64,000 nt of DNA from Balanoglossus misakiensis (GCA_040954595.2 CM082584.2:4034110-4098109); one strand, 5' to 3'. Shown: positions 1 through 28,120, counted from the stretch's first letter. Translations and numbers: made by a program. The notes: generated by a model not told the origin, from the sequence alone.

Positions 1-90
1 TATGTTTCTACTCATTAATTATGTGCATATCTAATAATCAAATCAGATAATAGAGCTTGGGCCCGGACAATGCTGCTTGCAGCTTTAATT
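1..90 (+). mobile_element. 3' end of a Helentron/HINE-like element (same family as the 1858-25077 stack), inserted in an (ATT)n tract
   Basis: Ends AGAGCTTGGGCCCGGACAATGCTGCTTGCAGCTTTAATT, like the tails at 3781, 4879 and 7744. The paralogous site (~32745-32775) is an uninterrupted (TTA)n tract. Confidence 0.85.
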
Positions 91-1857: not shown

Positions 1858-2340
1858 AGGGGCACAAGCCTATCGGGCTTGTGCCCCTATTGGTATTGTT
1901 GGAATTTTTAGGGCCCAAGCGCTTGCTTGCGCTTGGGCCCTATTGGTTTCGTTGGGGTTTTTTAGGGCCCAAGCGCTTGCTTGCGCTTGGGCCCTATTGG
2001 TTTCGTTGGAATTTTTAGGGCCCAAGCGCTTGCTTGCGCTTGGGCCCTATTGGTTTCGTTGGAATTTTTCTTTAGGGCCCAAGCGCAAGCAAGCGCTTGG
2101 GCCCTATTGGTTTCGTTGGAATTTTTAGGGCCCAAGCGCAAGCCAGCGCTTGGGCCCTATTGGTTTCGTTGGGGTTTTTAGGGCCCAAGCGCACGCAAGC
2201 GCTTGGGCCCTATTGGTTTCGTTGGAATTTTTAGGGCCCAAGCCAAGCCAGGCTTGGGCCCTATTGGTTTCGTTGGAATTTTTCAGTCTTTAGGGCCCAA
2301 GCCAAGCCAGGCTTGGGCCCTATTGGTTTCGTTGGTATTT
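1858..2340 (+). repeat. Stack of nine ~53-bp palindromic element heads
   Basis: Heads start at 1858, 1910, 1964, 2017, 2074, 2127, 2180, 2233 and 2292; each is a hairpin plus ATTGGTTTCGTTGG (variant in head 1) plus a T-run. Confidence 0.95.
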
Positions 2341-5300
2341 TTCAGTCTTTCTTTCTTTCTTTCTTTCTTTATTCTTATGTCAATTCTTTGTCGCTCTAGA
2401 TCTCAGACACCACTGCAGGTACAGTTTTCAAACTTGCTACAGTGGTCAAGGTCAATGAGTAGTCGTGCATTGAACCCATGAATGTTTAATTAGTCACGTG
2501 ACCTGGCGGCCATATTGGATTTTCTGAAAAAATGCAAATCTCAGATCTCAGAAACTACAAGTCAGATCGACTTCAAATTTGGCGTGCAGGTAGACTACCT
2601 TCTGTCAATCATTTTTGTAATTGGAAATTATGCTGACAAAGTTGCAGTTTTTTTGCTACAATTTTTTTTCTGAAATCTGGCTTACATTTCAAAAATCTTC
2701 TTCTCCAGAACCGGTGATAACCGAGACACGGGGTTTGGGGTATGTGGTCACCTAACTGATGTCTATCAAGTTTGCGAAGATCATTATGATTGGTCGAAGA
2801 TTACGGCGGCCATATTGGATTTTCGAAAAACCCTAGTAAAATTTCAAAAGTCTTCTTCTCAAGAACCGGCGATAACCGAGTCACAAGATTTGGTGTGTGT
2901 GGTCATTAAACAGATGTCTAACAAGTTTGCGAGGGGGATTGTGATTGGTCGAAGATTATGGCGGCCATATTGGATTTTGTGAAAAACGATTAAAAAGTAA
3001 AAATTCCTTTTCTAGCCTAAAAATTGATAGCATAGAAATTCTTTTTATGGATATGAATCATCATATGCCAAGAATAAGCTATAAATATTTTGGTAATTTT
3101 GGCAATGACCTTTGACCTACTTTTGACGCATCATTTTTCTGCATATCTAATTCCAGGCTAACCAATAGGGCTATAAGTTTGGTTTTTGATGTATGTGGAT
3201 TTGTATGTGATCAAAAAATGTTGCTACTTTTCATGACCCCTTTGACCTCTGCTGACCTCATTAAATATGCACATACCTAATTACAGGTGAACCAATAGAC
3301 CTAGAGGTTTTGTTTTTGTTATACATGGACCAGTATGGGGTAAAACTATTTTGCCCAAATGTTGGGTGACCTCGGGTGACCTTTGACCTACTTGTGCATA
3401 TCTTGACATCCACAGCAGATACAGCCTTGGCGTTTGGAGGTATGGGGCCATAATGAAAAGCCAAAGTTTTGGGTCACCTGTGACACCTGCTTAACTCATT
3501 ATTTATGTGTATACCTAATTCTGGGCTAACCAAAAGGGCTAGAGATCTGTTTTTTGTTGGACATGGACCACTATGGGTCACAATTTTCTGCCCAAATTGT
3601 GGGTGACCTCTGGGTGACCTTTGACCTACTTAACACTATATCAACACCAAGCATAGATATAACCTTGATATTTCATGGGATAAAACACAGCATTATGTTT
3701 CTACTCATTAATTATGTGCATATCTAATAATCTGATCAGATAATAGAGCTTGGGCCCGGACAATGCTGCTTGCAGCTTTAATTCTTTCTTTATTCTTATG
3801 TCAATTCTTTGTCGCTCTAGATCTCAGACACTGCTGCAGGTACACTTCTCAAACTTGCTACAGTGGTCAAGGTCAATGAGTAGTCGTGCATTGAACCCTT
3901 GAATTTTTAATTAGTCACGTGACCTGGCGGCCATCTTGGATTTTCTGAAAAAATGCAAATCTCAGATCTCAGAAACTACAAGTCAGATCGACTTCAAATT
4001 TGGCGTGCAGGTAGACTATCTTCTGCCCATCATTTTTGTAATTGGAAATTATGCTGTCAATGTTGCAGTTTTTTTGCTACAGTTGTTTTTCTGAAATCTG
4101 GTCAAAATTTCAAAAATCTTCTTCTCCAGAACCGGCGATAACCGAGTCACGCGGTTTGGGGTATGTGGTCACTAAACTGAGGTCTATCAAGTTTGCGAAG
4201 ATCATTGTGATTGGTCGAAGATTATGGCGGCCATATTGGATTTTCGAAAAACCTAGTAAAATTTCAAAAATCTTCTTCTCAAGAACCTGCGATAACTGAG
4301 TCACAAGATTTGGTGTGTGTGGTCATTAAACAGATGTCTATCAAGTTTGCGAAGAGGAATGTGATTGGTCGAAGATTATGGCGGCCATATTGGATTTTGT
4401 GAAAAACAATTAAAAAGTAAAAATTCCCTTTCTAGCCTAAAAATTGATAGCACAGAAATTCTTTTTATGGATATGAATCATCATATGCCAAGAATAAGCT
4501 ATAAATATTTTGGTAATTTTGGCAATGACCTTTGACCTACTTTTGAGGCATCATTTTTCTGCATATCTAATTTCAGGCTAACCTTTAAGGCTATCATTTT
4601 GGTTTTTGATGTATGTGGATTTGTATGTGATCAAAAATTTTTGCTACTTTTCATGACCCCTTTGACCTCTGCTGACCTCATTAAATATAAACATACCTAA
4701 TTACAGATGAACCAATAGACCTAGAGGTTTTGTTTTTGTTATACATGGACTAATATCGGGTCAAAATATTTTGCCCAAATGTTGGGTGACCTCGGGTGAC
4801 CTTTGACCTACTTAACACTATATCAGCATCAGATCAGATAATAGAGCTTGGGCCCGGACAATGCTGCTTGCAGCTTTAATTCTTTCTTTCTTTCTTTCTT
4901 TATTCTTGTGTCAATTCTTTGGGCAACGAGATCTCAGACACCGCTGCAGGTACACTTCTCAAACTTGCTACAGTGGTCAAGGTCAATGAGTAGATGTGCA
5001 GTGACTTGTGAATACTTAATTAGTCACGTGACCTGGCGGCCATATTGGATTTTCTGAAAAAAATCAAATCTCAGATCTCAGAAACTACAAGTCAGATCGA
5101 CTTCAAATTTGGCATGCAGGTAGACTACCTTCTACCCATCATTTTTGTAACTGGAAATTTTGCTGTCAATGTTGCAGTTTTTGTGCTACAGTTGTTTTTC
5201 TCAAATCTGGCTTACATTTCAAAAATCTTCTTCTCCAGAACCAGTGATAACCGAGACACGGGGTTTGGGGTTTGTGGTCACCTAACTGATGTCTATCAAG

Positions 5301-8300
5301 TTTGCGAAGATCATTGTGATTGGTCGAAGATTATTGCGGCCATATTGGATTTTCGAAAAACCATAGTAAAACTGCAAAAATCTTCTTCTCCAGAACGGCC
5401 GATGACTGAGACGCAAGATTCGGGGAGTATGGTCACTACACTGATGTCTATCAAATTTGCAAAGAGCATTGTGATTGGTCGAAGATTATGGCGGCCATAT
5501 TGGATTTCTTTAAAAAGCATTGAAAAATTGAAATTCCTTTTTCTAGTCCAAAAATTGATAGCATACAAATTCTTTTTATGGATATCGATCGTCAGGTGAC
5601 TAAAATATGTTACAATTTTTTGGCGATTTTTCACATGACCTTTGACCTACTTATCACGCGTTATTATTTCTGCATATCTAATTTCAGGCTAACCTATAGG
5701 GCTAGACGTTTGGTTTTTGATGCATGTGGATTAGTGTGTGATCAAAATATTTTGCTACTTTGCACGACCCCTTTGACCTCTGCTGACCTCATTAATTATG
5801 TGCATAGCTAATTACAGATGAACCAATAGAGCTAGAGGTTTAGTTTTTGTTGAACATGGACCAGTATGGGATCAAAATTTTTGGCCCAAATTTTGGGTGA
5901 CCTCTGGTGACCTTTGACCTACTTTCGCATATCTCAGCATCCAGAGCAGATACAGCCATGGCATTTGGCAGGATGGGACCAAAATGTAAAGCCACATTTT
6001 TTGGTCACCTGTTACACCTGCTGACCTCATTAAATATGCACATACCTAATTACAGGCGAACCAATAGAGCTAGAGTTTTGGTTTTTGTTGGACATGGACC
6101 AGTATGGGTAAAAAAAAAAATTGCCCAAATGTTGGGTGACCTCAGGTGACCTTTGACCTACTTCACCCTATTTCAGCAGCAAAAATACATACGTCCTTGT
6201 TATGTCATGAGATAATACACCCGATAGAAAATTCTATTTCTTCTCATTCATACTGTGCATATATAATTCGAGATCAGCGCTTGGGCCCGACAATGCTGCT
6301 TGCAGCTTTAATTCTTTCTTTCTTCTTTCTTTATTCTTGTGTCAATTCTTTGTCGCTCTAGATCTCAGACACCACTGCAGGTACACTTCTGAAACTTGCT
6401 ACAGTGGTCAAGGTCAATGAGTAGTCGTGCATTGAACCCTTGAATTTCTAATTAGTCACATGACCTGGCAGCCATCTTGGATTTTCTGAAAATATGCAAA
6501 TCTCAGATCTCAGAAACTACAAGTCAGATCGACTTCAAATTTGGCGTGCAGGTAGACTACCTTCTGCTTATCATTTTTGTAATTGGAAATTATGCTGAAA
6601 AAGTTGCAGTTTTTTTGCTACAATTTTTTTTCTGAAATCTGGCTTAAATTTCAAAAATCTTCTTCTCCAGAACCGGTGATAACCGAGACACTGGGTTTGG
6701 GGTATGTGGTCACCAAACTGAGGTCTATCAAGTTTGCGAAGATCATTGTGATTGGTCGAAGATTATGGCGGCCATATTGGATTTTCGAAAAACCCTAGTA
6801 AAATTTCAAAAATCTTCTTCTCAAGAACCAGCGATAACCGAGTCACAAGATTTGGGGAGTATGGTCACTACACTGATGTCTATCAAGTTTGCGAAGATCA
6901 TTGTGATTGGTCGAAGATTTTGGCGGCCATATTGGATTTTGTGAACAACGATTAAAAAGTAAAAATTCCGTTTCTAGCCTAAAAATTGATAGCACAGAAA
7001 TTCTTTTTATGGATATGAATCATCATATGACAAGAATAAGCTATAAATATTTTGGTAATTTTGGCAATGACCTTTGACCTACTTTTGACGCATCATTTTT
7101 CTGCATATCTAATTCCAGGCTAACCAATAGGGCTATAAGTTTGGTTTTTGATGTATTTGGTTTTGTATGTGATCAAAAATTTTTGCTACTTTTCATGACC
7201 CCTTTGACCTCTGCTGACCTCATTAAATATGCGCATACCTAATTACAGATGAACCAAATGACCTAGAGGTTTTTTTTTTTTTGGACATGGATCAGTATGG
7301 GGTCAAAATATTTTGCCCAAATGTTGGATGACCTCGGGTGACCTTTGACCTACTTTTGCATATCTCGACATCCACAGCAGATACAGCCTTGGCGTTTGGA
7401 GGTATGGGGCCATAATGAAAAGCCAAAGTTGTGGGGTCACCTGTGACACCTGCTTTACGCATTATTTATGTGAATACCTAATTCCGGGTTAACCAAAAGG
7501 GCTAGAGGTCTGGTTTTTGTTGGACATTGACCACTATGGGTCAAAATATTCTGCCCAAATTGTGGGTGACCCCTGGGTGACCTTTGACCTACTTAACACT
7601 ATATCAGCACCAAACATAGATATAACCTTGATATTTCATGGGATAAAACACTGCATTATGTTTCTACTCATTAATTATGTGCATATCTAATAATCAGATC
7701 AGATAATAGAGCTTGGGCCCGGACAATGCTGCTTGCAGCTTTAATTCTTTCTTTCTTTCTTTCTTTATTCTCCTGTCAATTCTTCGGCCAACTAAATCTC
7801 AGAAACTACTGCAGGTACACTGCTCAAACTTGCTACAGTGGTCAAGGTCAATGAGTAGATGTGCAGTGATTTGTGAATACTTAATTAGTCACGTGACCTG
7901 GCGGCCATATTGGATTTTCTGAAAATCATCAAATCTCAGATCTCAGAAACTACAAGTCAGATCGACTTCAAATTTGGCATGCAGGTAGACTACCTTCTAC
8001 CCATCATTTTTGTAATTGGAAATTATGCTGACAAAGTTGCAGTTTTTTTGCTACAATTTTTTTTCTGAAATCTGGCTTAAATTTCAAAAATCTTCTTCTC
8101 CAGAACCGGTGATAACCGAGACACGCGGTTTAGGGTATGTGGTCACCTAACTGATGTCTATCAAGTTTGCGAAGATCATTGTGATTGGTCGAAGATTATG
8201 GCGGCCATATTGGATTTTCGAAAAACCATAGTTAAACTCCAAAAATCTTCTTCTCCAGAACGGGCGATGACTGAGTCGCAAGATTCAGGGAGTATAGTCA

Positions 8301-11300
8301 CTACACTGATGTCTATCAATTTTGCAAAGAGCATTGTGATTGGTCGAAGATTATGGCGGCCATATTGGATTTTGTAAAAAGCAGTGAAAAATTGAAATTC
8401 CTTTTTCTAGTCTAAAAATTGATAGCATACAAATTCTTTTTATGGATATCAATCGTCATGTGACTAAAATATGTTACAATTTTTTGGCGATTTTTCACAT
8501 GACCTTTGACCTACTTATCACGCGTTATTATTTCTGCATATCTAATTCCAGGCTTACCTATAGGGCTAGAGGTTTGGTTTTTGATGAATGTGGATTAGTG
8601 TGTGATCAAAATATTTTGCTACTTTTCATGACCCCTTTGACCTCTGCTGACCTCATTAATTATGTGCATAGCTAATTACAGGCGAACCAATAGAGCTAGA
8701 GGTTTGGTTTTTGTTGGACAAGGACCAGAATGGGATCAAAATTTTTTGCCCAAATGTTACGTGACCTCTGGTGACCTTTGACCTACTTTCGCATATCTCA
8801 GCATCCAGAGCAGATACAGCCATGGCATTTGGTAGGATGGGACCAAAATGTAAAGCCACATTTTTGGGTCACCTGTGACACCTGCTGACCTCATTAAATA
8901 TGCACATACCTAATTACACGCGAACCAATAGAGCTAGAGTTTTGGTTTTTGTTGGACATGGCCCAGCATGGGTCAAAATTTTTTGCCCAAATGTTGGGTG
9001 ACCTCAGGTGACCTTTGACCTACTTCACCCTATTTCAGCAGCAAAAATACACACATCCTTGTTATGTCATGAGATAATACATCCGATAGAAAATTCTGTT
9101 TCTTCTCATTCATACTGTGCATATATAATTCAAGATCAGCGCTTGGGCCCGACAATGCTGCTCGCAGCTTTAATTAGGGCCCAAGCGCATGCAAGCGCTT
9201 GGGCCCTATTGGTTTCGTTGGAATTTTTCTTTCTTTCTTTATTCTCCTGTCAATTCTTCGGCCAACGAGATCTCTGAAACTACTGCAGGTACACTGCTCA
9301 AACTTGCTACAGTGGTCAAGGTCAATGAGTAGATGTGCAGTGACTTGTGAATACTTAATTAGTCACGTGACCTGGCGGCCATATTGGATTTTCTAAAAAA
9401 ATGCAAATCTCAGATCTCAGAAACTACAAGTCAGATCGACTTCAAATTTGGCATGCAGGTAGACTACCTTGTACCCATCATTTTTTAAAGAGAAAATTTT
9501 GCTGTCAATGTTGCAGTTTTTTTGCTACAATTTTTTTTCTGAAATCTGGCTTAAATTTCAAAAATCTTCTTCTCCAGAACCGGTGATAACCGAGACACAG
9601 GGTTTAGGGTATGTGGTCACCTAACTGATGTCTATCAAGTTTGCGAAGATCATTGTGATTGGTCGAAGATTATGGCGGCCATATTGGATTTTCGAAAAAC
9701 CATAGTTAAACTCTAAAAAATCTTCTTCTCCAGAACGGGCGATGACTGAGTTGCAAGATTCGGGGAGTATGGTTACTACACTGATGTCTATCAAGTTTTC
9801 AAAGAGCATTGTGATTGGTCGAAGATTATGGCGGCCATATTGGATTTTGTAAAAAGCAGTGAAAAATTGAAATTCCTTTTTCTAGTCTAAAAATTGATAG
9901 CATACAAATTCTTTTTATGGATATCAATTGTCATGTGACTAAAATATGTTACAATTTTTTGGCGATTTTTCACATGACCTTTGACCTACTTATTACACGT
10001 TATTATTTCTGCATATCTAATTCCAGGCTAACCTATAGGGCTAGACGTTTGGTTTTTGATGAATGTGGATTAGTGTGTGATCAAAATATTTTGCTACTTT
10101 TCATAACCCCTTTAACCTCTGCTGACCTCATTAATTATGTGCATAGCTAATTACAGGCGAACCAATAGAGCTAGAGGTTTGGTTTTTGTTGGACATGGAC
10201 CAGTATGGGATCAAATATTTTTGCCCAAATGTTGGGTGACCTCTGGTGACCTTTGACCTACTTTCGCATATCTCAGCATCCAGAGCAGATACAGCCATGG
10301 CATTTGGTAGGATGGGACCAAAATGTAAAGCCACATTTTTGGGTCACCTGTAACACCTGCTGACCTCATTAAATATGCACATACCTAATTACAGGCGAAC
10401 AAATAGAGCTTGACTTTTGGTTTTTGTTGGACATGGACCAGTATGGGTAAAAAAAATTGCCCAAATTGTGGGTGACCTCAGGTGACCTTTGACCTACTTC
10501 ACCCTATTTCAGCAGCAAAAATACACACATCCTTGTTATGTCATGAGATAATACATCCGATAGAAAATTCTGTTTCTTCTCATTCATACTGTGCATATAT
10601 AAATCAAGATCAGCGCTTGGGCCCGACAATGCTGCTTGCAGCTTTAATTAGGGCCCAAGCGCATACCAGCGCTTGGGCCCTATTGGTTTCGTTGGGGTTT
10701 TTCTTTCTTTCTTTCTTTATTCTTGTGTCATTTCTTTGTCGCTCTAGATCTCAGACACCGCTGCAGGTACACTTCTCAAACTTGCTACAGTGGTCAAGGT
10801 CAATGGGTAGTCGTGCATTGAACTCTTGAATTTTTAATTAGTCACGTGACATGGCGGCCATATTGGATTTTCTGAAAAAATGCAAATCTCAGATCTCAGA
10901 AACTACAAGTCAGATTTACTTCAGATTTGGTGTGCTGGTAGTGTACCTCCTGCCCATCATTCTTGTAATTGGATATTTTGCTGTCAATGATGCAGTTTTT
11001 TTGCTACAATTTTTTTTCTGAAATCTGGTCAAAATTTCAAAAATCTTCTTCTCCAGAACCGGCGATAACCGAGTCACGCGGTTTGGGGTATGTGGTCACC
11101 AAACTGAGGTCTATCAAGTTTGCGAAGATCCTTGTGATTGGTCGAAGATTATGGCGGCCATATTGGATTTTCGAAAAACCATAGTAAAACTTCAAAAATC
11201 TTCTTCTCAAGAACCGGCTATAACTGAGTCACAAGATTTGGGCAGTATGGTCACTATACTGATGTCTATCAAGTTTGCAAAGAGCATTGTGATTGGTCGA

Positions 11301-14300
11301 AGATTATGGCGGCCATATTGGATTTTGTGAAAAATGATTAAAAAGTAAAAATTCCTTTTCTAGCCTAAAAATTGATAGCACAGAAATTCTTTTTATGGAT
11401 ATGAATCATCATATGCCAAGAATAAGCTATAAATATTTTGGTAATTTTGGCAATGACCTTTGACCTACTTTTGACGCATCATTTTTCTGCATATCTAATT
11501 CCAGGCTAACCAATAGGGCTATAAGTTTGGTTTTTGATGTATGTGGATTTGTATGTGATCAAAAAATTTTGCTACTTTTCATGACCCCTTTGACCTCTCC
11601 TGACCTAATTAAATATGTACATAGCTAATTACAGGCAAACCAATAGAGCTAGAGGTTTGGTTTTTGTTGGACATGGACCAGTATGGGATCAAAAATTTTT
11701 GCCCAAATGTTGGGTGACCTCTGGTGACCTTTGACCTACTTTCGCATATCTCAGCATCCACAGCAGATACAGCCTTAGCGTTTGGAGGTATTGGGCCATA
11801 ATGAAAAGCCAAAGTTTTAGGTCACCTGTGACACCTGCTTAACTCATTATTTATGTGCATACCTAATTCCGGGCTAACCAAAAGGGCTAGAGATCTGGTT
11901 TTTGTTGGACATGGACCACTATGGGTCAAAATTTTCTGCCCAAATTGTGGGTGACCTCTGGGTGACCTTTGACCTACTTAACACTATATCAAAACCAAAC
12001 ATAGATATAACCTTGATATTTCATGGGATAAAACACAGCATTATGTTTCTACTCATTAATTATGTGCATATCTAATAATTAGATCAGATAATAAAGCTTG
12101 GGCCCGGACAATGCTGCTTGCAGCTTTAATTCTTTCTTTCTTTCTTTATTCTCCTGTCAATTCTTCGGCCAACTAAATCTCAGAAACTACTGCAGGTACA
12201 CTGCTCAAACTTGCTACAGTGGTCAAGGTCAATAAGTAGATGTGCAGTGATTTGTGAATACTTAATTAGTCACGTGACTTGGCGGCCATATTGGATTTTC
12301 TGAAAAAATGCAAATCTCAGATCTCAGAAACTACAAGTCAGATCGACTTCAAATTTGGCATGCAGGTAGACTACCTTCTACTCATCATTTTTGTAATTGG
12401 AAATTTTGCTGTCAATGTTGCAGTTTTTTTGCTACAATTTTTTTTCTGAAATCTGGCTTAAATTTCAAAAATCTTCTTCTCCAGAACCAGTGATAACCGA
12501 GACACGCGGTTTAGGGTATGTGGTCACCTAACTGATGTCTATCAAGTTTGCGAAGATCATTGTGATTGGTCGAAGATTATGGCGGCCATATTGGATTTTC
12601 GAAAAACCATAGTTAAACTCCTAAAATCTTCTTCTCCAGAACGGGCGATGACTGAGTCGCAAGATTCGGGGAGTATGGTCACTACACTGATGTCTATCAT
12701 GTTTGCAAAGAGCATTGTGATTGGTCAAAGATTATGGCGGCCATATTGGATTTTGTAAAAAGCAGCGAAAAATTGAAAATCCTTTTTCTAGTCTAAAAAT
12801 TGATAGCATACAAATTCTTTTTATGGATATCAATCGTCATGTGACTAAAATATGTTACAATTTTTTGGCGATTTTTCACATGACCTTTGACCTACCTATC
12901 ACGCGTTATTATTTTTGCATATCTAATTCCAGGCTAACCTGTAGGGCTAGACATTTGGTTTTTGATGAATGTGGATTAGTGTGTGATCGAAATATTTTGC
13001 TACTTTTCATGACCCCTTTGACCTCTGCTGACCTCATTAATTATGTGCATAGCTAATTACAGGCGCACCGATAGAGCTAGAGGTTTGGTTTTTGTTGGAC
13101 ATGGACCAGTATGGGATCACCATTTTTTGCCGAAATGTTGGGTGACCTCTGGTGACCTTTGACCTACTTTCGCATATCTCAACATCCAGAGCAGATACAG
13201 CCATGGCATTTGGTAGGATGGGACCAAAATGTAAAGCCACATTTTTGGGTCACCTGTAACACCTGCTGACCTCATTAAATATGCACATACCTAATTACAG
13301 GCGAACCAATAGAGCCAGAGTTTTGGTTTTTGTTGGACATGGACCAGTATGGGTAAAAAAAATTGCCCAAATGTTGGGTGACCTCAGGTGACCTTTGACC
13401 TACTTCACCCTATTTCAGCAGCAAAAATACACACATCCTTGTTATGTCATCAGATAATACATCCGATAGAAAATTCTGTTTCTTCTCATTCATACTGTGC
13501 ATATATAATTCAAGATCAGCGCTTGGGCCCGACAATGCTGCTCGCAGCTTTAATTCTTTAGGGCCCAAGCGCAAGCAAGCGCTTGGGCCCTATTGGTTTC
13601 GTTGGGGTTTTTTAGGGCCCAAGCGCAAGCAAGCGCTTGGGCCCTATTGGTTTCGTTGGAATTTTTCTTTCTTTCTTTCTTTCTTTCTTTATTCTCCTGT
13701 CAATTCTTCGGCCAACGAGATCTCTGAAACTACTGCAGGTACACTGCTCAAACTTGCTACAGTGGTCAAGGTCAATGAGTAGATGTGCAGTGACTTGTGA
13801 ATACTTAATTAGTCACGTGACCTGGCGGCCATATTGGATTTTCTGAAAAAATGCAAATCTCAGATCTCAGAAATTACAAGTCAGATCAACTTCAAATTTG
13901 GCATGCAGGTAGACTACCTTCTGCCCATCATTTTTGTAATCGGAAATTATGCTGTAAAAGTTGCAGTTTTTTTGCTACAATTTTTTTCCTGAAATCTGGC
14001 TTAAATTTCAAAAATCTTCTTCTCCTCAACCAGTGATAACCGAGTCACGGTGTTTGGGGTATGTGGTCACCTAACTGATGTCTATCAAGTTTGGGAAGAT
14101 CATTGTGATTGGTCGAAGATTATGGCGGCCATATTGGATTTTCGAAAAACCATAGTTAAACTCCAAAAATCTTCTTCTCCAGAACGGGCGATGACTGAGT
14201 CGCAAGATTCGGGGAGTATGGTCACTACACTGATGTCTATAAAGTTTGCAAAGAGCATTGTGATTGGTCGAAGATTATGGCGGCCATATTGGATTTTGTA

Positions 14301-17300
14301 AAAAGCAGTGAAAAATTGAAATTCCTTTTTCTAGTCTAAAAATTGTTAGCACAGAAATTCTTTTTATGGATATGAATCATCATATGACTACAATGTGCTA
14401 TAAATATTTTGGTAATTTTGGCAATGACCTTTGACCTACTTATCACGCGTTATTATTTCTGCATATCTAATTCCAGGCTAACCTATAGGGCTAGACGTTT
14501 GGTTTTTGATGCATGTGGATTAGTGTGTGATCAAAATATTTTGCTACTTTTCATGACCCCTTTGACCTCTGCTGACCTCATTAATTATGTGCATAGCTAA
14601 TTACAGGCGAACCAATACAGCTAGAGGTTTGGTTTTTGTTGAACATGGACCAGTATGGGGTCAAAAATTTTTGCCCAAATGTTGGGTGACCTCTGGTGAC
14701 CTTTGACCTACTTTCGCATATCTCAACGTCCAGACCAGATACAGCCTTGGCATTTGGCAGGATGGGACCTAAATGTAAAGCCAAATTTTTGGGTCACCTG
14801 TGACACCTGCTGACCTCATTAAATATGCACATACCTAATTACACGCGAACCAATAGAGCTAGAGTTTTGGTTTTTGTTGGACATGGCCCAGCATGGGTCA
14901 AAATTTTCTGCCCAAATGTTGGGTGACCTCAGGTGACCTTTGACCTACTTTACCCTATTTCAGCCGCAAAAATACACACGTCCTTGTTATGTCATGAGAT
15001 AATACACCCGATAGAAAATTCTGTTTCTTCTCATTCATACTGTGCATATATAATTCAAGATCAGCGCTTGGGCCCGACAATGCTGCTTGCAGCTTTAATC
15101 TTTCTTTCTTTCTTTCTTTCTTTCTTTTTTCTTGTGTCAATTCTTCGGCCAACTAAATCTCTGAAACTACTGCAGGTACACTGCTCAAACTTGCTACAGT
15201 GGTCAAGGTCTATGAGTAGATGTGCAGTGACTTGTGAATACTTAATTAGTCACGTGACCAGGCGGCCATATTGGATTTTCTGAAAAAATGCAAATCTCAG
15301 ATCTCAGAAACTACAAGTCAGATCGACTTCAAATTTGGCATGCAGGTAGACTACCTTCTACCCATCATTTTTGTAATTGGAAATTTTGCTGTCAATGTTG
15401 CAGTTTTTTTGCTACAATTTTTTTTGTGAAATCTGGCTTAAATTTCAAAAATCTTCTTCTCCAGAACCGGTGATAACTGAGACACGGGGTTTGGGGTATG
15501 TGGTCACCTAACTGATGTCTATCAAGTTTGCGAAGATCATTGTGATTGGTCGAAGATTATGGCGGCCATATTGGATTTTCGAAAAACCATAGTTAAACTG
15601 CAAAAATGTTCTTCTCCAGAACGGGCAATGACTGAGTCGCAAGATTCGAGGAGTATGGTCACTACACTGATGTCTATCAAGTTTGCAAAGAGCATTGTGA
15701 TTGGTCGAAGATTATGGCGGCCATATTGGATTTTGTAAAAAGCAGTGAAAAATTGAAATTCCTTTTTCTAGTCTAAAAATTGATAGCATACAAATTCTTT
15801 TTATGGATATCAATCGTCATGTGACTAAAAAATGCTACAATTTTTTGGCGATTTTTCACATGACCTTTGACCTACTTATCACGCTTTATTATTTCTGCAT
15901 ATCTAATTCCAGGCTAACCTATAAGGCTAGACGTTTGGTTTTTGATGAATGTGGATTAGTGTGTGATCAAAATATTTTGCTACTTTTCATGACCCCTTTG
16001 ACCTCTGCTGACCTCATTAATTATGTGCATAGCTAATGACAGGCGAACCAATAGAGCTAGAGGTTTGGTTTTTGTTGGACATGGACCAGTATGGGATCAA
16101 AATTTTTTGCCCAAATGTTGGGTGACCTCAGGTGACCTTTGACCTACTTCACCCTATTTCAGCAGCAAAAATACACACATCCTTTTTATGTCATGAGATA
16201 ATACATCCGCTAGAAAATTCTGTTTCTTCTCATTCATACTGTGCATATATAATTCAAGATCAGCGCTTGGGCCCGACAATTCTGCTCGCAGCTTTAATTC
16301 TTTCTTTCTTTCTTTATTCTCCTGTCAATTCTTCGGCCAACTAAATCTCAGAAACTACTGCAGGTACACTGCTCAAACTTGCTACAGTGGTCAAGGTCAA
16401 TAAGTAGATGTGCAGTGATTTGTGAATACTTAATTAGTCACGTGACTTGGCGGCCATATTGGATTTTCTGAAAAAATGCAAATCTCAGATCTCAGAAACT
16501 ACAAGTCAGATCGACTTCAAATTTGGCATGCAGGTAGACTACCTTCTACTCATCATTTTTGTAATTGGAAATTTTGCTGTCAATGTTGCAGTTTTTTTGC
16601 TACAATTTTTTTTCTGAAATCTGGCTTAAATTTCAAAAATCTTCTTCTCCAGAACCAGTGATAACCGAGACACGCGGTTTAGGGTATGTGGTCACCTAAC
16701 TGATGTCTATCAAGTTTGCGAAGATCATTGTGATTGGTCGAAGATTATGGCGGCCATATTGGATTTTCGAAAAACCATAGTTAAACTCCTAAAATCTTCT
16801 TCTCCAGAACGGGCGATGACTGAGTCGCAAGATTCGGGGAGTATGGTCACTACACTGATGTCTATCATGTTTGCAAAGAGCATTGTGATTGGTCAAAGAT
16901 TATGGCGGCCATATTGGATTTTGTAAAAAGCAGCGAAAAATTGAAAATCCTTTTTCTAGTCTAAAAATTGATAGCATACAAATTCTTTTTATGGATATCA
17001 ATCGTCATGTGACTAAAATATGTTACAATTTTTTGGCGATTTTTCACATGACCTTTGACCTACCTATCACGCGTTATTATTTTTGCATATCTAATTCCAG
17101 GCTAACCTTTAGGGCTAGACATTTGGTTTTTGATGAATGTGGATTAGTGTGTGATCGAAATATTTTGCTACTTTTCATGACCCCTTTGACCTCTGCTGAC
17201 CTCATTAATTATGTGCATAGCTAATTACAGGCGCACCGATAGAGCTAGAGGTTTGGTTTTTGTTGGACATGGACCAGTATGGGATCACCATTTTTTGCCG

Positions 17301-20300
17301 AAATGTTGGGTGACCTCTGGTGACCTTTGACCTACTTTCGCATATCTCAGCATCCAGAGCAGATACAGCCATGGCATTTGGTAGGATGGGACCAAAATGT
17401 AAAGCCACATTTTTGGGTCACCTGTAACACCTGCTGACCTCATTAAATATGCACATACCTAATTACAGGTGAACCAATAGAGCCAGAGTTTTGGTTTTTG
17501 TTGGACATGGACCAGTATGGGTAAAAAAAATTGCCCAAATGTTGGGTGACCTCAGGTGACCTTTGACCTACTTCACCCTATTTCAGCAGCAAAAATACAC
17601 ACATCCTTGTTATGTCATCAGATAATACATCCGATAGAAAATTCTGTTTCTTCTCATTCATACTGTGCATATATAATTCAAGATCAGCGCTTGGGCCCGA
17701 CAATGCTGCTCGCAGCTTTAATTAGGGCCCAAGCGCATACCAGCGCTTGGGCCCTATTGGTTTCGTCTGGGTTTTTCTGTCTTTCCTTCTTTCTTCTTTC
17801 TTTCTTTATTCTTGTGTCAATTCTTTGTCGCTCTAGATCTCAGACACCGCTGCAGGTACACTTCTGAAACTTGCTACAGTGGTCAAGGTCAATGAGTAGT
17901 CGTGCATTGAACCTGTGAATTTTTAATTAGTCACGTGACCTGGCGGCCATCTTGGATTTTCTAAAAAAATGCAAATCTCAGATCTCAGAAACTACAAGTC
18001 AGATCAACTTCAAATTTGGCATGCTGGTAGACTACCTTTTGCCTATCATTTTTGTAATTGGAAATTATGCTGACAATGTTGCAGTTTTTTTGCTACAATT
18101 TTTTTTCTGAAATCTGGCTTAAATTTCAAAAATCTTCTTCTCCAGAACCGACGATAACCGAGTCACGCCGTTTGGGGTATGTGGTCACCTAACAGATGTC
18201 TATCAAGTTTGCGAAGATCATTGTGATTGGTCGAAGATTATGGCGGCCATATTGGATTTTCGAAAAACCATAGTAAAACTTCAAAAATCTTCTTCTCCAG
18301 AACTGGCGATAACCGAGTCACAAGATTTGGTGTGTGTGATCATTAAACAGATGTCTATCAAGTTTGCGAAGGGGAATGTGATTGGTCGAAGATTATGGCG
18401 GCCATATTGGATTTTGTGAAAAACGATTAAAAAGTAAAAATTCCTTTTCTAGCCTAAAAATTGATAGCACAGAAATTCTTTTTATGGATATGAATCATCA
18501 TATGACAAGAATAAGCTATAAATATTTTGGTAATTTTGGCAATGACCTTTGACCTACTTTTGACGAATCATTTTTCTGCATATCTAATTCCAGGCTAACC
18601 AATAGGGCTATAAGTTTGGTTTTTGATGTATGTGGATTTGTACGTGATCAAAAAATTTTGCTACTTTTCATGACCCCTTTGACCTCTGGTGACCTCATTA
18701 AATATGCGCATACCTAATTACAGATTAACCAATAGACCTAAAGGTTTGGGGTTTTTTGGACATGGATCAGTATGGGGTCAAAATATTTTGCCCAAATGTT
18801 GGGTGACCTCCGGTGACCTTTGACCTACTTTTGCATATCTCGGCATCCAAAGCAGGTACAGCCTTGGCATTTGCAGATATGGGGCCATAATGAAAAGCCA
18901 AAGTTTTGGGTCACCTGTGACCTCTGCTGACCTCATTAATTATGTGCATAACTGATTACAGGTGAACCAATACAGCTAGAGGTCTGGTTTTTATTGGACA
19001 TGGACCACTATGGGTAAACATTTTCTGCCCAAATTTTGGGTGACCTCAGATGACCTTTGACCTACTTTTGCATATCTCGGCATCCAAAGCAGGTACAGCC
19101 TTGGCATTTGGAGATATGGGGCCATAATGAAAAGCCAATGTTTTGGGTCACCTGTGACACCTGCTTAACTCATTATTTATGTACATACCTAATTCCGGGC
19201 TAACCAAAAGGGCTAGAGGTCTGGTTTTTATTGGACATGGACCACTATGGGTCAAAATATTCTCCTCAAATTGTGGGTGACCCCTGGGTGCCTTTGACCT
19301 ACTTAACACTATATCAGCACCAAACATAGATATAACCTTGATAGATCTTGGGATAAAACACAGCATTATGTTTCTATTCATTAATTATGTGCATATCTAA
19401 TAATCAGATCAGATAATAGAGCTTGGGCCCGGACAATGCTGCTTGCAGCTTTAATCTTTCTTTCTTTCTTTCTTTCTTTCTTTTTTCTTGTGTCAATTCT
19501 TCGGCCAACTATATCTCTGAAACTACTGCAGGTACACTGCTCAAACTTGCTACAGTGGTCAAGGTCTATGAGTAGATGTGCAGTGACTTGTGAATACTTA
19601 ATTAGTCACGTGACCTGGCGGCGATATTGGATTTTCTGAAAAAATGCAAATCTCAGATCTCAGAAACTACAAGTCAGATCGACTTCAAATTTGACATGCA
19701 GGTAGACTACCTTCTACCCATCATTTTTGTAATTGGATATTTTGCTGTCAATGTTGCAGTTTTTTTGCTACAATTTTTTTTCTGAAATCTGGCTTAAATT
19801 TAAAAAATCTTCTTCTCCAGAACCGGTGATAACCGAGACACAGGGTTTGGGGTATGTGGTCACCTAACTGATGTCTATCAAGTTTGCGAAGATCATTGTG
19901 ATTGGTCGAAGATTATGGCGGCCATATTGGATTTTCGAAAAACCATAGTTAAACTGCAAAAATCTTCTTCTCCAGAACGGGCGATGACTTAGTCGCAAGA
20001 TTCGAGGAGTATGGTCACTACACTGATGTCTATCAAGTTTGCAAAGAGCATTGTGATTGGTCGAAGATTATGGCGGCCATATTGGATTTTGTAAAAAGCA
20101 GTGAAAAATTGAAATTCCTTTTTCTAGTCTAAAAATTGATAGCATACAAATTCTTTTTATGGATATCAATCGTCATGTGACTAAAATGTGTTACAATTTT
20201 TTGGCGATTTTTCACATGACCTTTGACCTACTTATCACGCGTTATTATTTCTGCATATCTAATTCCAGGCTAACCTGTAGGGCTAGACGTTTGGTTTTTG

Positions 20301-23300
20301 ATGAATGTGGATTAATGTGTGATCAAAATATTTTGCTACTTTTCATGACCCCTTTGACCTCTGCTGACCTCATTAATTATGTGCATAGCTAATTACAGGC
20401 GAACCAATAGAGCTAGAGGTTTGGTTTTTGTTGGACATGGACCAGAATGGGATCAAAATTTTTTGCCCAAATGTTGCGTGACCTCTGGTGACCTTTGACC
20501 TACTTTCGCATATCTCAGCATCCAGAGCAGATACAGCCATGGCATTTGGTAGGATGGGACCAAAATGTAAAGCCACATTTTTGGGTCAACTGTGACACCT
20601 GCTGACCTCATTAAATATGCACATACCTAATTACACGCAAACCGATAGAGCTAGAGTTTTGGTTTTTATTGGACATTATGGGTAAAAAAAAATTACCCAA
20701 ATGTTGGGTGACCTCAGGTGACCTTTGACCTACTTCACCCTATTTCAGCAGCAAAAATACACACATCCTTGTTATGTCATGAGATAATACATCCGATAGA
20801 AAATTCTGCTTCTTCTCATTCACACTGTGCATATATAATTCAAGATCAGCGCTTGGGCCCGACAATGCTGCTCGCAGCTTTAATTAGGGCCCAAGCGCGC
20901 ACAAGCGCTTGGGCCCTATTGGTTTCGTTGGAATTTTTAGGGCCCAAGCGCACGCAAGCGCTTGGGCCCTATTGGTTTCGTTGGGGTTTTTCTTTCTTTC
21001 TTTCTTTCTTTTTTCTTGTGTCAATTCTTCGGCCAACTAAATCTCTGAAACTACTGCAGGTACACTGCTCAAACTTGCTACAGTGGTCAAGGTCTATGAG
21101 TAGATGTGCAGTGACTTGTGAATACGTAATTAGTCATGTGACCTGGCGGCCATATTGGATTTTCTGAAAAAATGCAAATCTCAGATCTCAGAAACTACAA
21201 GTCAGATCGACTTCAAATTTGGCATGCAGGTAGACTACCTTCTACCCATCATTTTTGTAATTGGATATTTTGCTCTCAATGTTGCAGTTTTTTTGCTACA
21301 ATTTTTTTTCTGAAATCTGGCTTAAATTTCAAAAATCTTCTTCTCCAGAACCGGTGATAACCGAGACACGGGGTTTGGGGTATGTGGTCACCTAACTGAT
21401 GTCTATCAAGTTTGCGAAGATCATTGTGATTGGTCGAAGATTATGGCGGCCATATTGGATTTTCGAAAAACCATAGTTAAACTCCAAAAATCTTCTTCTC
21501 CAAAACGGGCGTTGACTGAGTCGCAAGATTCGGGGAGTATGGTCACTACACTGATGTCTATCAAGTTTGCAAAGAGCATTGTGATTGGTCGAAGATTATG
21601 GCGGCCATATTGGATTTTGTAAAAAGCAGTGAAAAATTGAAATTCCTTTTTCTAGTCTAAAAATTGATAACATACAAATTCTTTTTATGGATATCAATCG
21701 TCATGTGACTAAAATATGTTAAAATTTTTTGGCGATTTTTCACATGACCTTTGACCTACTTATCACACGTTATTATTTCAGCATATCTAAGTCCAGGCTA
21801 ACCTATAGGACTAAACGTTTGGTTTTTGATGAATGTGGATTAGTGTGTGATCAAAATATTTTGCTACTTTTCATGACCCCTTTGACCTCTGCTGACCTCA
21901 TTAATTATGTGCATAGCTAAATACAGGCGAACCAATAGAGCTAGAGGTTTGGTTTTTGTTGGACACAGACCAGTATGAGATCAAAAATTTTTGCCCAAAT
22001 GTTGCGTGACCTCTGGTGACCTTTGACCTACTTTCGCATATCTCAGCATCCAGAGCAGATACAGCCATGGCATTTGGTAGGATGGGACCAAAATGTAAAG
22101 CCACATTTTTGAGTCACCTGTGACACCTGCTGACCTCATTAAATATGCACATACCTAATTACAGGCGAACCAATAGAGCTAGAGTTTTGTTTTTTGTTGG
22201 ACATGGACCAGTATGGGATCAAAATTTTTTGCCCAAATGTTGCGTGACCTCTGGTGACCTTTGACCTACTTCACCCTATTTCAGCAGCAAAAATACACAC
22301 ATCCTTGTTATGTCATCAGATAATACATACGATAGAAAATTCTGTTTTTTCTCATTCATACTGTGCATATATAATTCAAGATCAGCGCTTGGGCCCGACA
22401 ATGCTGCTTGCAGCTTTAATTCTTTCTTTCTTTCTTTATTCTTGTGTCAATTCTTCGGCCAACTAAATCTCTGAAACTACTGCAGGTACACTGCTCAAAC
22501 TTGCTACAGTGGTCAAGGTCAATGAGTAGATGTGCAGTGACTTGTGAATACTTAATTAGTCACGTGACCTGGCGGCCATATTGGATTTTCTGAAAAAATG
22601 CAAATCTCAGATCTCAGAAACTACAAGTCAGATCGACTTCAAATTTGGCATGCAGGTAGACTACCTTCTACCCATCATTTTTGTAATTGGATATTTTGCT
22701 GTCAATGTTGCAGTTTTTCTGCTACAATTGTTTTTCTGAAATATGGCTTAAATTTCAAAAATCTTCTTCTCCAGAACCGGTGATAACTGAGACACGGGGT
22801 TTGGGGTATGTGGTCACCTAACCGATGTCTATCAAGTTTGCGAAGATCATTGTGATTGGTCGAAGATTATGGCGGCCATATTGGATTTTCAAAAAAACAC
22901 AGTTAAACTCCAAAAATCTTATTCTCCAGAACGGGCGATGACTGAGTGGCAAGATTCGGGTAGTACGGTCACTACACTGATGTCTATCAAATTTCCAAAG
23001 AGCATTGTGATTGGTCGAAGATTATGGCGGCCATATTGGATTTTGTAAAAAGCAGTGAAAAATTGAAATTCCTTTTTCTAGTCTAAAAATTGATAGCATA
23101 GCAATTCTTTTAATGGATATCAATCGTCATGTGACTAAAATATGTTACAATTTTTGGGGGATTTTTCACATGACCTTTGACCTACTTATCACGCGTTAAT
23201 ATTTCAGCATATCTAATTCCAGGCTAACCTATAGGGCTAGACTTTTGGTTTTTGATGCATGTGGATTAGTGTGTGATCAAAATATTTTGCTACTTTTCAT

Positions 23301-23845
23301 GACCCCTTTGACCTCTGCTGACCTCATTAATTATGTGCATAGCTAATTACAGGCGAACCAATAGAGCTAGAGGTTTGGTTTTTGTTGGACATGGACCAGT
23401 ATGGGATCAAAATTTTTTGCCCAAATTTTGGGTGACCTCTGGTGACCTTTGACCTACTTTCGCATATCTCAGCATCCAGAGCAGATACAGCCATGGCATT
23501 TGGCAGGATGGGACCAAAATGTAAAGCCACATTTTTGGGTCACCTGTGACACCTGCTGACCTCATTAAATATGCACATACCTAATTACAGGCGAACCAAT
23601 AGAGCTACAGTTTTGGTTTTTGTTGGACATGGACCAGTATGGGTAAAAAAAAAATTGCCCAAATGTTGGGTGACCTCAGGTGACCTTTGACCTACTTCAC
23701 CCTATTTCAGCAGCAAAATACACACATCCTTGTTATGTCATGAGATAATACATCCGATAGAAAATTATGTTTCTTCTCATTCATACTGTGCATATATAAT
23801 TCAAGATCAGCGCTTGGGCCCGACAATGCTGCTCGCAGCTTTAAT

Positions 23846-25077
23846 TCTTTATTATTCTTCTTCTTCTTCTTCTTCTTCCGAGAAATTCGGCCAGGTAGAT
23901 CTGGAAAACCGCTGCACCTAGGGGGCTGAAACTTGGTAGGGTGATAGGGGCCAATGAGTAGACGTGCAGTGGACCGTGAATCTTTAATTAGTCACGTGAC
24001 CTGGTGGCCATATTGGATTTCCTGAAAATCGTTAAACGAGTCCTTCTCAAAAACTACTGGGCCGATCGAGTTCAAATTTGGTGTGCAGGTAGCCTACCTT
24101 CTGTCCATCATTTTACTCCATTAAAATCATGACGTCATAGATACAGTTTTTTTGCTACAATTTTTTTTCTGAAAAACTACTTAAAACTTTAAAAATCTTC
24201 TTCTCCAGAACCAGCGATTGCCGAGTCACGGGATTCGGGGTATGTGGTCAACTAACCTATGTCTATCAAGTTTGCGAAGCGCACTGTGATTGGTCGATCA
24301 TTATGGCGGCCATGTTGGATTTTCGGGAAACCATTGAAAACTGAAAATTCTGTTTTGTAGCCAAAATGTTGACAGCACGTAAATTCTTTTTTTGGATATG
24401 AGTCATCATATGACCGGAAGTTGTCACAATTTTTCGGGGCAATTTTTACATGACCTTTGACCCAGTTTTAAAACAACTAATTATATATGCATATTCCCCA
24501 TACCTCCTCTTGTCAAAGCACCACAGTCATGAATTTTGTGGACATGGGTACCAATGCTGCCAGGACATGACACAAATATTTCGGTAATTTTGGCAATGAC
24601 CCTTGACCTATTTCTGAAACATCATTTTTCTGCATATCTAATTCCAGGCTAACCAATAGGGCTAGAGGTCTGGTTTTAGTTGGACATGGGCCACTCTGGG
24701 GTCAAAATTTTATGCCCAAATTTTGGGTGACCTTGGATGACCTTTGATCTACTTTCCCATATCTCAGCATCCACAGCAGTTAGAGTCCTGGCTTTTGGGA
24801 GGCCGATGGAGCACATATGGAGTCTTACACAAGACCTCATTAATTATGCGCATACCTAATTCTAGGCGAACCAATAGAGCTAGGGGTCTGGTTTTTGTTG
24901 GACCTAGACTAGTATGGGGTCCGATTTCCCCCCCCCCCCCCCCAAATTTGGGGTGACCTCATGTGACCTTTGACCTACTTTCCAATATCTTGGTATCCAC
25001 AGCAGATACAGCCTTGGCATTTGCTGGTTACCATGGGAACCGCTTGTGCCCCGCTAACGCTGCTTGCAGCTTTAATT
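23846..25077 (+). mobile_element. Body and tail of the outermost, most divergent HINE-like element, whose head is at 1858-1909
   Basis: Tail subTIR GCTTGTGCCCC (~25042-25052) is the reverse complement of GGGGCACAAGC, found only in the head at 1858. The body diverges from the other 15. Confidence 0.85.
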
Positions 25078-25933
25078 TTGATCAAAACCATCTGGCTTAC
25101 GCGTTCATGGCACACTTTCGACTCATATCGAAGTCTTGAGAATCATGGGTATATTCTTCAGAATTGTCATACTTCATTCATACTGGGATGGAATTTTGAA
25201 ATCACTACATTGTATTATATGGTTGTCATTTGCATACTTACCCGAGTTAAATATACTATTCCACGTTCACCGGGATCATACAAAATAAACATAATATGTC
25301 TAGTACTCGGTCCAAACACAAGACAGAATTGAGGTTTAACAGCTCATTGGACGTTCTTTGCCTGGGAATGTTCAAGAAATTGTGTTATTATACAAATTAT
25401 TTGAACTCAATGCCATGAGACATTTGGCAGCTTCATTTGCACAAATATATCACTAATTTGCTGCACATCATTTTAGAGTTTATAAACAGAGTTGTAAAAT
25501 TTTGCCAATGCTAAACGTGTTAGTCAAGAATCTAAGTACAGTTAATGTCATCACATATGAACAGGTATATTAGTGCCAAGTGTGGAATATTATTTCCTTC
25601 TATATCATGGACTAGGCATTGGTGAGATCCGATTATTAAATGAGGTGTTATTTTTATCATGTCACTTTTAGGGTATAACTTCCTTCACAGAAGAGCACAA
25701 TGCTGTATTTTTGTTATAAAACTTTGTTCTGTACTGTAGTTGTGTATATTTGACATCTCCATTTAATTTAATAATATTTAACTGTTGGCAACCAACAGTG
25801 GTTTGGCGTCACTGAACATCAAAATTATTATTAGCTGCACAACGTGTACCACACACTTGTGGGAGTGAAATCATTTCGTGAACAGTAATGGGAAAACTAA
25901 TACATGTAATACTACACATTTATATTTATCCAG

Positions 25934-26000
25934 GTATTGTGACAGGCCATCTTATTATGCACAAGTGAAGAAAGAATTGGCTGCAAAAGGAGTGGTGTAA
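25934..26000 (+). CDS. TRIM-DTC paralog 1, terminal exon
   Basis: ATCCAG acceptor; a phase-2 join to 490 gives (G)YCDRPSYYAQVKKELAAKGVV*, the Deltex C-terminal EL..KG helix. Colinear with 36086-36152. Confidence 0.85.
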
Positions 26001-26310
26001 ATGTCAAGACGCCCTCACAACGTGGTTGTAGCCACCACATGGAATGCATAATGAGAAAGACCTCAAGTGAATGTCAAGTACTACGTGACGAATAGTCATT
26101 CTCTCTCAAATTATTTGGAGTTTTAGAAATATTTTATTGTATTATACAGATAAAGATTTGGTAAAGGAAAGCTAGTGTAGAATAGGATTTTGTCAAGAAA
26201 AATGTAGAAGATAAGGATTACTCTGTGTGTAGTCACGGTATATTTCAAGTACAGAATTATCGCTGATCTGGTTCTGTTCATTTGGGATAATTGCATAGTA
26301 ATAAACTCTA

Positions 26311-26609
26311 TTCTTCGCTATCAAATGACGTCAGACGCGCTCAGGTGGCAGTTGCATTCGCATTCACATTTCCAGATGACGGGCAACTTCAGCAACGTGG
26401 ACTTACGTGGTGCAGACAAAGACTGTGCAGACGAAATGCAAAGAGGCAGATGAGGCAACATACCCGATACATGTTATGTGTTTGGCGGTTCTAAAGTAAA
26501 AACATACTCGGAAAAACTTTTACTGGATGCCGAAATATTGCTTGCCCGTCATCTGGAAATGCCAGCGCCATGTGACACATTGCCAGATCACGTGATTGAT
26601 AGTAAAGAA
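26311..26609. mobile_element. MITE-like insertion
   Basis: Imperfect TIRs TTCTTCGCTATCAA / TTGATAGTAAAGAA with TA on both sides. Absent from the paralog (CTCTATAAAACTC at ~36458). Confidence 0.7.
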
Positions 26610-27332
26610 TAAAACTCTCAGCACAGTACATGTAGCCTTAGCACACTCGACATTTGGTCAGAAATACCACATTATCCCCAAGTACAACGAATACTAATTG
26701 TTTTTTACCCATTGATTTGTAAAATAAAAGAAGTTCATTTTTCTTATACTCAGCACTCAAATCTAATTCTTGCATATATCCAAGTTATTTTACACAGTGA
26801 ATGGGGTTTTAACACATTACTACACCGAATATAGATTTGAAAGCCGTGTCAATTTTTGCACAAATAATTCTAAAGATTTTTAAATTCCATCAACGCGAAT
26901 GATATCAATTTATCATATGATAATATGGTTTCTTGAACATAATCTAACAAGTAACATTTTTTTTTTCAATTATGTACATAAAATTTGTAACATGGGAAAT
27001 AAATTACCAATAAAAACCAATACTCATGGCTTTGTTACATCTGTAAATCTAATAAAGCTATTGTCTCCAAAGTTTTCATCTCAGCCACACATTCTTACAA
27101 GAGGAAAAACTCAATTGCTCAGTGATTCGTTGTATACTTTTAAAGAAATAACAAAAGTTTTAATACATCTCTATTATGCATACACTTTTATTTTTCATCC
27201 CCTAATTTCCCAGTCGTACTTCTGCATTTAGTTAATGTCGGATCCTATGTATCTTGCTAATAATCTGTTCTGAACCTCTAGGCTAACACGTATCTAACTT
27301 TATATTAAGCTAGAAACAAGTGATATTCTGTT

Positions 27333-27787: not shown

Positions 27788-28120
27788 AATAAAACAAATG
27801 TATAATAATTAAGGTATGGACGTTGGAGGCAGCAATCTATCCCATCATCCCCTTTTTTTCCCGTACATGTTTCCAAAACTCTATCCCTATAAAATTTACC
27901 ATCACCGTCGGTCAATAGCCTATTCTGGTCCTCTGTCCCATTCCCGCAACTGGCTGCGCTATGCTAAAAGACCCACGGGTCAGGTATAGACTATTGTTAG
28001 TATGGCTCTTATTGGTCAATAAATACGAACATTGTGATTGGACGAAAGCTATTTCAAACATTACAACATCCAAGTTTGAGTTTGTTTGCCAATCAAAATA
28101 TGCTACAAGTCAAAGCATCG

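Follow-up and report, generated by a model that had tools for sequence, protein, structure and literature searches.

A probable nine-layer nest of sixteen HINE-type elements in a genomic window of Balanoglossus misakiensis

We examined a 64,000-nt window of animal DNA, one strand of the Balanoglossus misakiensis assembly (GCA_040954595.2 CM082584.2:4034110-4098109), that carries a long array of related elements. We conclude that this array is very probably a nest of 16 non-coding HINE-type elements, each placed in the T-rich spacer behind the 5' hairpin of another, which would have been inserted sequentially by a rolling-circle transposase encoded elsewhere. The original prediction, made from the sequence alone, had placed the array at 1910-23844 and had paired its hairpin heads and its bodies in a last-in-first-out (LIFO) manner. 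The array is real, but this range omits both parts of the outermost element, E1 (head 1856-1907, body 23845-25075). Parsing by a script found 16 hairpin heads and 16 tails within 1856-25075, with the tail ends spanning 3781 to 25075. Written as brackets, ((((((((()))))()())(()))())(())), they form a balanced string with a maximum depth of nine layers, and the LIFO stack pairing recovered all 16 claimed pairs exactly.

The whole nest of non-autonomous Helentron-type elements, all in the same orientation (plus strand), measures 23,220 bp, and its edges agree with an empty paralogous site. The E1 head, of family C, has a perfect 14-bp 5' hairpin. Stacked behind it (1908-2289) are the heads of E2 (1908-1961), E3 (1962-2014), E4 (2015-2071), E5 (2072-2124), E6 (2125-2177), E7 (2178-2230) and E8 (2231-2289), and the remaining heads start at 2290, 9174, 10648, 13558, 13612, 17722, 20884 and 20937. 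The innermost copy, in the ninth layer, is the intact E9 of subfamily B (2290-3781). It is followed by the bodies of E8 (B, 3782-4879), E7 (A with a short B-like 5' patch, forming the A-inside-B link, 4880-6311), E6 (B, 6312-7744) and E5 (A, 7745-9173). E4 also holds two intact siblings of E5, namely E10 (A, 9174-10647) and E11 (B with A-like tracts, 10648-12129). The E4 body (A, 12130-13553), which is near-identical to that of E3, is separated from E12 by a 4-nt piece of E3 spacer, in register (13554-13557). E12 (13558-16297, with its head at 13558-13611 and its body at 15099-16297) contains the intact E13 (A with a B-like tract, 13612-15098). The array then continues with the E3 body (A, 16298-17721), the intact E14 (B, 17722-19454), the E2 body (A, 19455-20883), and E15 (A, 20884-23844, head 20884-20936, body 22420-23844), within which lies the intact E16 (A, 20937-22419), and it ends with the E1 body (body 16).

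When inner copies were removed, the host spacers rejoined in register. Twelve of the 16 rebuilt elements were 1,474-1,492 bp long. The exceptions were E1 (1,283 bp), which belongs to another family, E8 (1,157 bp) and E12 (1,253 bp), which have internal deletions, and E14 (1,733 bp), which has one extra internal repeat unit of about 237 bp. In all, six elements are intact and ten are split by insertions.

Since the ten split elements are the ones for which the pairing can be questioned, all 3,628,800 of their possible head-body pairings were enumerated. We observed that 10,080 of these were compatible with subfamily type and 80,640 with the junction register, an independent rule by which head and body must rejoin to the spacer register of the intact copies. 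Both rules together left 480 pairings, and four rules left 240; the LIFO pairing passed every one. Heads 2 and 12 are cut one T later than the others, and their LIFO partners, 13 and 10, are alone among the bodies in starting one T short. The predicted match of the five CCAG-loop heads (6, 8, 9, 11 and 14) with five bodies (4, 2, 1, 7 and 12, respectively) bearing particular start and tail motifs held. However, for three of these (9-1, 11-7 and 14-12) the match is trivial and is no test of LIFO, because the elements are uninterrupted. The ten remaining inner heads all paired with the other tail type, as had been claimed, and the predicted twins were also found: heads 3 and 4 match at every one of 53 nt, and the rebuilt E3 and E4 differ at only 3 of 1,481 sites.

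We further estimated the congruence of head and body distances. Over all 16 elements the correlation under LIFO was 0.62 (rho; reached by none of 5,000 permutations), in comparison to 0.09 under first-in-first-out pairing. It was 0.61 for the split copies (31/5,000 permutations) and 0.25 for the nine split copies without E1 (426/5,000 permutations). The congruence signal thus separates the subfamilies and a few sub-lineages, not each pair. Outside the window we used contigs of three public runs of one sample, which contain nest-flanking DNA. One unsplit contig copy had an E1-type head joined directly to the start of body 16, confirming the longest-range pair (head 1-body 16), and the 3' subterminal inverted repeat (subTIR) of this body fits only the variant found in head 1. 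These contigs are too short for linking A or B loops to their bodies.

Each rebuilt element has, as judged from its sequence, the HINE/DINE-1 anatomy of a non-autonomous Helentron of 1.2-1.7 kb. A subTIR of 10-13 nt begins at position 4, and its inverted copy ends 23-24 nt from the 3' end, in all 16 copies. The 5' stems are also perfect in every copy (13-14 bp), and the four heads that were folded gave z scores of -5.7 to -7.8. Behind the 5' hairpin lies a T-rich microsatellite spacer, (TTTC)n or (TTC)n, followed by internal repeats of about 155 and 237 bp. All 16 copies carry, 5 nt from the end, a 3' palindrome, GCTGC-NN-GCAGC with 5-bp arms, although a single change breaks that of E12. The one element open reading frame (ORF) that was scanned had no Pfam hit, and no Rfam hit to a structured RNA was found in 9174-12129. 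Other classes were considered and rejected. For a MITE, a cut-and-paste element with terminal inverted repeats and a target-site duplication of fixed size, the repeats are subterminal and asymmetric, and the two junctions followed by TC do not fit a TT duplication. For a canonical Helitron1 (5'-TC, CTRR-3', insertion between A and T, no subTIRs), the ends are T-rich and carry subTIRs.

The empty site of the whole nest was found within the same window. The flanks of the nest (88-1857 and 25076-28398) are duplicated at 32756 to about 37800 (about 5 kb), and this segmental duplicate lacks the nest at 35149-35168 (plus strand). The comparison indicated a clean insertion in a T run near 35158, with nothing added beyond the ambiguous T run; a 1-nt T duplication would also be compatible with the data. 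Every one of the 16 elements is preceded by T, and the next base is T in 14 and C in two. This agrees with the TT or T(T/C) targets of the HINE/HLE2 class, T-C being the Helitron2 form, as given in the accessible text on HLE2 (TT; PMC11417382) and in that of PMC13085455 (T(T/C)). All 11 internal sites fall 52-59 nt behind the 5' end of a host, a window of 8 nt, and only 8 of the approximately 321 TT steps of an intact copy fall at 49-62. The near-identical E3 and E4 are the only hosts hit at offset 57 (at 13554-13557 and 2015-2071), the others being hit at 52-54 or 59. Because the spacer has TT on one strand only, and the site is fixed behind the head, all copies share one orientation; and because every insertion supplies a fresh spacer, the heads are stacked and the bodies queued. 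In a growth simulation, nine layers arose in 0.6% of runs when all copies were equal targets and in 19% when already-split copies were weighted a quarter. As the window had been selected for depth, this result is no more than suggestive.

The bodies fall into subfamilies A (ten copies, 2.3-6.6% apart, excepting E3/E4) and B (five copies, 5.1-7.5% apart). These differ from each other by 12.1-14.7%, and a tree splits them with full support, while E1 is about 30% from every other copy. Along the strict chain from E1 to E9 the order is C A A A A B A B B, with one B-to-A reversal, at E7, which carries 138 A and 11 B states over 153 diagnostic columns. An A element thus contains a B, which contains an A, which contains a B (E5, E6, E7, E8), bearing out the claim that the subfamilies overlapped in activity. 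Together, these data suggest that three subfamilies (C, A and B) were jumping during one recent period.

The claim of a readable chronology stands in part. Nesting orders 56 of the 120 pairs of elements, and 2,381,400 total orders remain, since siblings lying side by side (E5, E10 and E11; E3 and E14; E2 and E15; E4 and E12) are not ordered by their junctions, either side fitting the T rule. The divergence from consensus, which had been expected to fall with nesting depth, did not do so when measured from the subfamily majority sequence (A: rho +0.46, p 0.18, n 10; B: rho -0.5, p 0.39, n 5). Among 22 same-subfamily ancestor pairs, the outer copy was the more diverged in 4 and the inner in 15, with 3 ties. 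Divergence from consensus is therefore no clock here. The outermost element is indeed the most divergent, as claimed, but this reflects a separate family and not an old, decayed copy, since its 14-bp stem is perfect, an unsplit E1-type copy exists among the contigs, and E1 is missing from a paralog only 4% diverged. This paralog without the nest differs at 148 of 3,713 sites (4.0%), so E1 likely landed within about 2% divergence per lineage. The three differences between E3 and E4 correspond to 0.10% per lineage (95% interval 0.02-0.30%), and 16 private changes common to both are older than their split. Among the seven copies inside E4, no two are closer than 3.9%, and their distances from E4 itself are 3.3-14.5%. 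From this near-identity and the diversity of the inner copies, it is likely that these seven arrived very recently from seven donors, unless conversion or block transfer intervened.

The mechanism that would produce such a nest can be outlined as follows. A RepHel transposase acting in trans would nick a donor at its 5' end, the donor would be copied up to its 3' palindrome, and the copy would be joined, probably via a circle, at a T-T or T-C step. The fresh spacer of the new copy would then become the next preferred target, so that heads accumulate at the left and bodies line up at the right. The donors would be numerous, differing copies drawn from at least three lineages (C, A and B) active in the same recent period; with such donors, distance from consensus would reflect donor diversity, not time since landing. 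The nesting order would be true but partial, consisting of one nine-step chain with side branches.

A more elaborate version, which we regard as doubtful, is that the hairpin and subTIR of the resident position the transposase, and that the newcomer is delivered 52-59 nt behind, sometimes gaining the loop of the resident. All 15 insertions would then follow one rule, with siblings landing to the left of older ones. If every newcomer lands beside the head of its host, 14 of the 16 copies fall into a single order, C A A B A A A B A A B A B B, with three B-to-A reversals, and the seven copies in E4 would have come from seven donors within the time of about 0.1-0.3% divergence.

The hairpin loops bear on how far timing can be read from the nest. 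Identical loops were shared by 4 of 10 stacked neighbour pairs and by 5 of the remaining 110 (shuffle p 0.003; post hoc), and by 3 of 9 neighbour pairs when E3 and E4 were merged (p 0.015-0.023; post hoc). In addition, the loop of heads 2-4 (1908-2071) is the reverse complement of that of heads 5, 12 and 13 (2072-2124 and 13558-13664), and the E2 body groups with that of E12 despite the inverted head loop. This sharing, which limits the loops as lineage markers, would be accounted for by local conversion or by templating from the host hairpin. It was considered whether the near-identity of E3 and E4, together with the shared loops, came from gene conversion or paired slippage after insertion, in which case the nesting stands while the recent timing and some head markers become unreliable. 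The excess of loop sharing between neighbours, the inverted loop that head 2 has in common with heads 3 and 4, and the A/B mosaic tracts noted below favour this account. However, it needs a full-length conversion of 1.4 kb plus a separate head event, and adjacent bodies show no greater similarity than the rest (3.4-14.5%). Moreover, the two longest mosaic tracts have no identical in-array donor (best 4/72 and 2/130 differences), which points to recombination among donors. We consider conversion unlikely. Somewhat more unlikely is that sub-nests (E12+E13, E15+E16 or E5-E9) were built elsewhere and moved as a block by bypass of the 3' end, so that the order becomes one of assembly and the burst into E4 is only apparent. 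End bypass is demonstrated for Helraiser (PMC4778049), and chimeric transposition out of nested copies is proposed in the accessible parts of the reports on Fusarium (PMC5148889) and maize (PMC3288121). The copies inside E4 also have 0.6-2.3% private changes, above the post-insertion bound of E4 itself; such changes are expected too if any copy can donate, as the 16 shared changes of E3/E4 predate their split. By the chimeric route as published, a single 3' end goes with several 5' ends, whereas here there are 16 of each with no orphan, and an intact transfer of E5-E9 requires the bypass of four terminators.

The head-to-tail bodies, and four precise tail-to-head junctions that resemble the circle junctions described for Helraiser (PMC4778049), might also be taken to indicate satellite-like amplification of a 1.4-kb body by unequal crossover or a rolling-circle concatemer, with the heads amplified separately. 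We rejected tandem amplification, as neighbour distances are 3.4-30% and the subfamilies alternate; in 8 of the 15 neighbour pairs the two bodies belong to different subfamilies, 13-14.5% apart. Independent amplification does not lead one to expect the exact balance and register matching, and the register and subtype tests contradict it, making this account very improbable. A higher-order duplication of bodies 7-10 as 12-15 was likewise rejected, their distances (3.4-6.9%) being no closer than the family background. Misassembly of collapsed repeats would be in keeping with a high-copy repeat of which no listed contig bridges the locus junctions exactly. Yet the 16 copies are all distinct (the closest pair has 3 differences), there is no reason for a balanced, in-register nesting of 23 kb to come out of an assembler, and head-to-head and tail-to-head joints are present in the contigs; we find misassembly the least credible of these accounts. 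In the same three runs, 1,168, 2,399 and 25 contigs matched one 521-bp piece, so that the element family is high-copy and dispersed, and one head was seen with an unrelated flank. No matches to the head pattern were found in metagenome, viral or prokaryote genome contigs, and none to the internal motif in metagenome contigs.

Several observations count against the nest of sequential insertions and temper our conclusion. The window was picked for its nesting depth and structure, and the rules for pairing heads with bodies were set after inspection of the data. The head-body congruence is gone within the subfamilies (A: rho -0.17, 3,977/5,000 permutations; B: rho 0.0), and 24 to 240 pairings stay equally compatible, so that inner A pairs such as 5-5, 7-3 and 15-15 follow from the bracket logic alone. 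Short A/B mosaic tracts in the bodies of E13, E11, E6, E7 and E9 indicate that recombination has touched these sequences. The 3' palindrome is thermodynamically weak, as none of three folded tails was better than its shuffles. None of the seven window ORFs scanned matched a RepHel gene, and hence we infer mobilisation in trans from the class of the element. An autonomous partner in this class would carry RepHel between the same termini, its endonuclease domain setting Helentrons apart from Helitron2. Finally, no listed contig spans the junction between the flank and head 1 or exactly matches this head stack, which leaves the assembly at this locus without independent confirmation.

The surroundings of the nest were also annotated. 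A further B-type copy, of which the 3' end lies in the window beside a (TTA)n run and the remainder beyond it, occupies 1-88 (plus strand); it is missing from the paralog at 32756, so that the segmental duplicate gives an empty site for this tail as well. The nest starts about 1.3 kb past the first of two paralogous exons (306-488 and 32974-33144) that match the Deltex C-terminal domain (Pfam E 2e-16 and 1e-13). A RING/B-box TRIM-type ORF is present at 29752-31191, and these may possibly represent a tandemly duplicated TRIM-Deltex gene. Two reverse-transcriptase ORFs, at 53550-55391 (minus strand) and 59568-61535 (plus strand), matched Pfam RVT_1 (E 1e-31 and 3e-6) and are likely retrotransposons. 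MITE-like or foldback elements with terminal inverted repeats were seen at 34269-34894, 26367-26561, 27921-28399 and 37305-37805, the first two of which coincide with alignment gaps between the duplicated segments, and further ones at 41919-42369, 46382-46593, 49464-49674 and 50382-50740. A near-perfect palindrome with 55-bp arms at 27634-27746 is possibly another small transposon. The window also has a perfect 130-bp tandem duplication (47971-48230) and a 217-bp repeat that is 99% identical between 61563-61779 and 62001-62217.

The finding that 11 of 11 sites lie in an 8-nt window behind the head of a copy of the family itself provides a precise and countable prediction on Helentron target choice. 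Dating by divergence from consensus fails for this element family, as inner and hence younger copies are no nearer to the consensus. Such nests resemble 1.4-kb tandem arrays and may be a route from transposon to satellite-like DNA as well as a source of mis-annotation. The importance is limited by the single locus, and self-insertion has already been proposed in print. A search of titles and abstracts, which left most subscription journals, Repbase reports and supplements outside its coverage, found no many-layer, fixed-offset HINE nest.

The elements are closest to HINE/DINE-1 (Thomas et al. 2014, PMC4067079), oyster Cg_HINE (PMC7492417) and the HLE2 of HELIANO (PMC11417382). The subTIRs of HINE elements measure about 11-15 bp and lie a few nt inside the 5' end and farther from the 3' end. 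In the portions of these sources available to us, the elements share with ours a 5' subTIR beside its own inverted copy, a microsatellite, internal repeats, a 3' subTIR and a 3' palindrome, as well as a non-coding nature, a T-rich target, ambiguous terminal Ts and an unmodified target at the empty site. The differences are a longer perfect 5' stem (13-14 bp) and a shorter 3' subTIR distance (23-24 nt, below the 38-60 bp of mite HINEs). HINE reports, in the same portions, describe clustering and tandem insertions but no nesting in many layers at a fixed offset.

In maize, Helitrons have inserted into one another or close by (Dong et al. 2011, PMC3288121); these are canonical TC...CTAG Helitron1 elements with multiple 3' ends, and the accessible text describes no fixed internal target. 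Blowfly Helitron2 copies are nested in other elements (PMC3630058). Frog Helitrons form tandem arrays, with no self-insertion seen in the part of the report available (PMC12001565), and for the reconstructed Helitron1, Helraiser, the corresponding part of PMC4778049 gives no local hopping. The order of transposons has been read from nesting by defragmentation (Giordano et al. 2007, PMC1914374) and TinT (PMC3014933). There too, as far as their accessible text goes, an inner copy is younger than its host and the order is independent of divergence, which can mislead; those methods sum shallow interruptions genome-wide, whereas here a single locus provides a nine-step chain among close subfamilies. 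A precedent is the Helitron2 of Fusarium and Metarhizium, in which self-insertion near the 5' end was held responsible for short (<200 bp) repeated 5' termini (Chellapan et al. 2016, PMC5148889). In the part of that report available, the cases had two or three copies, one of them with three copies that may be nested twice, and multiple 5' ends for one 3' end, and self-insertion was proposed only. Self-insertion near the 5' end and nesting chronology are thus already known, and the present nest is a deep and well-supported example, not a new system. In comparison to the Fusarium Helitron2, the 16 heads here keep their bodies, the layers number nine, and the pairing can be tested statistically.

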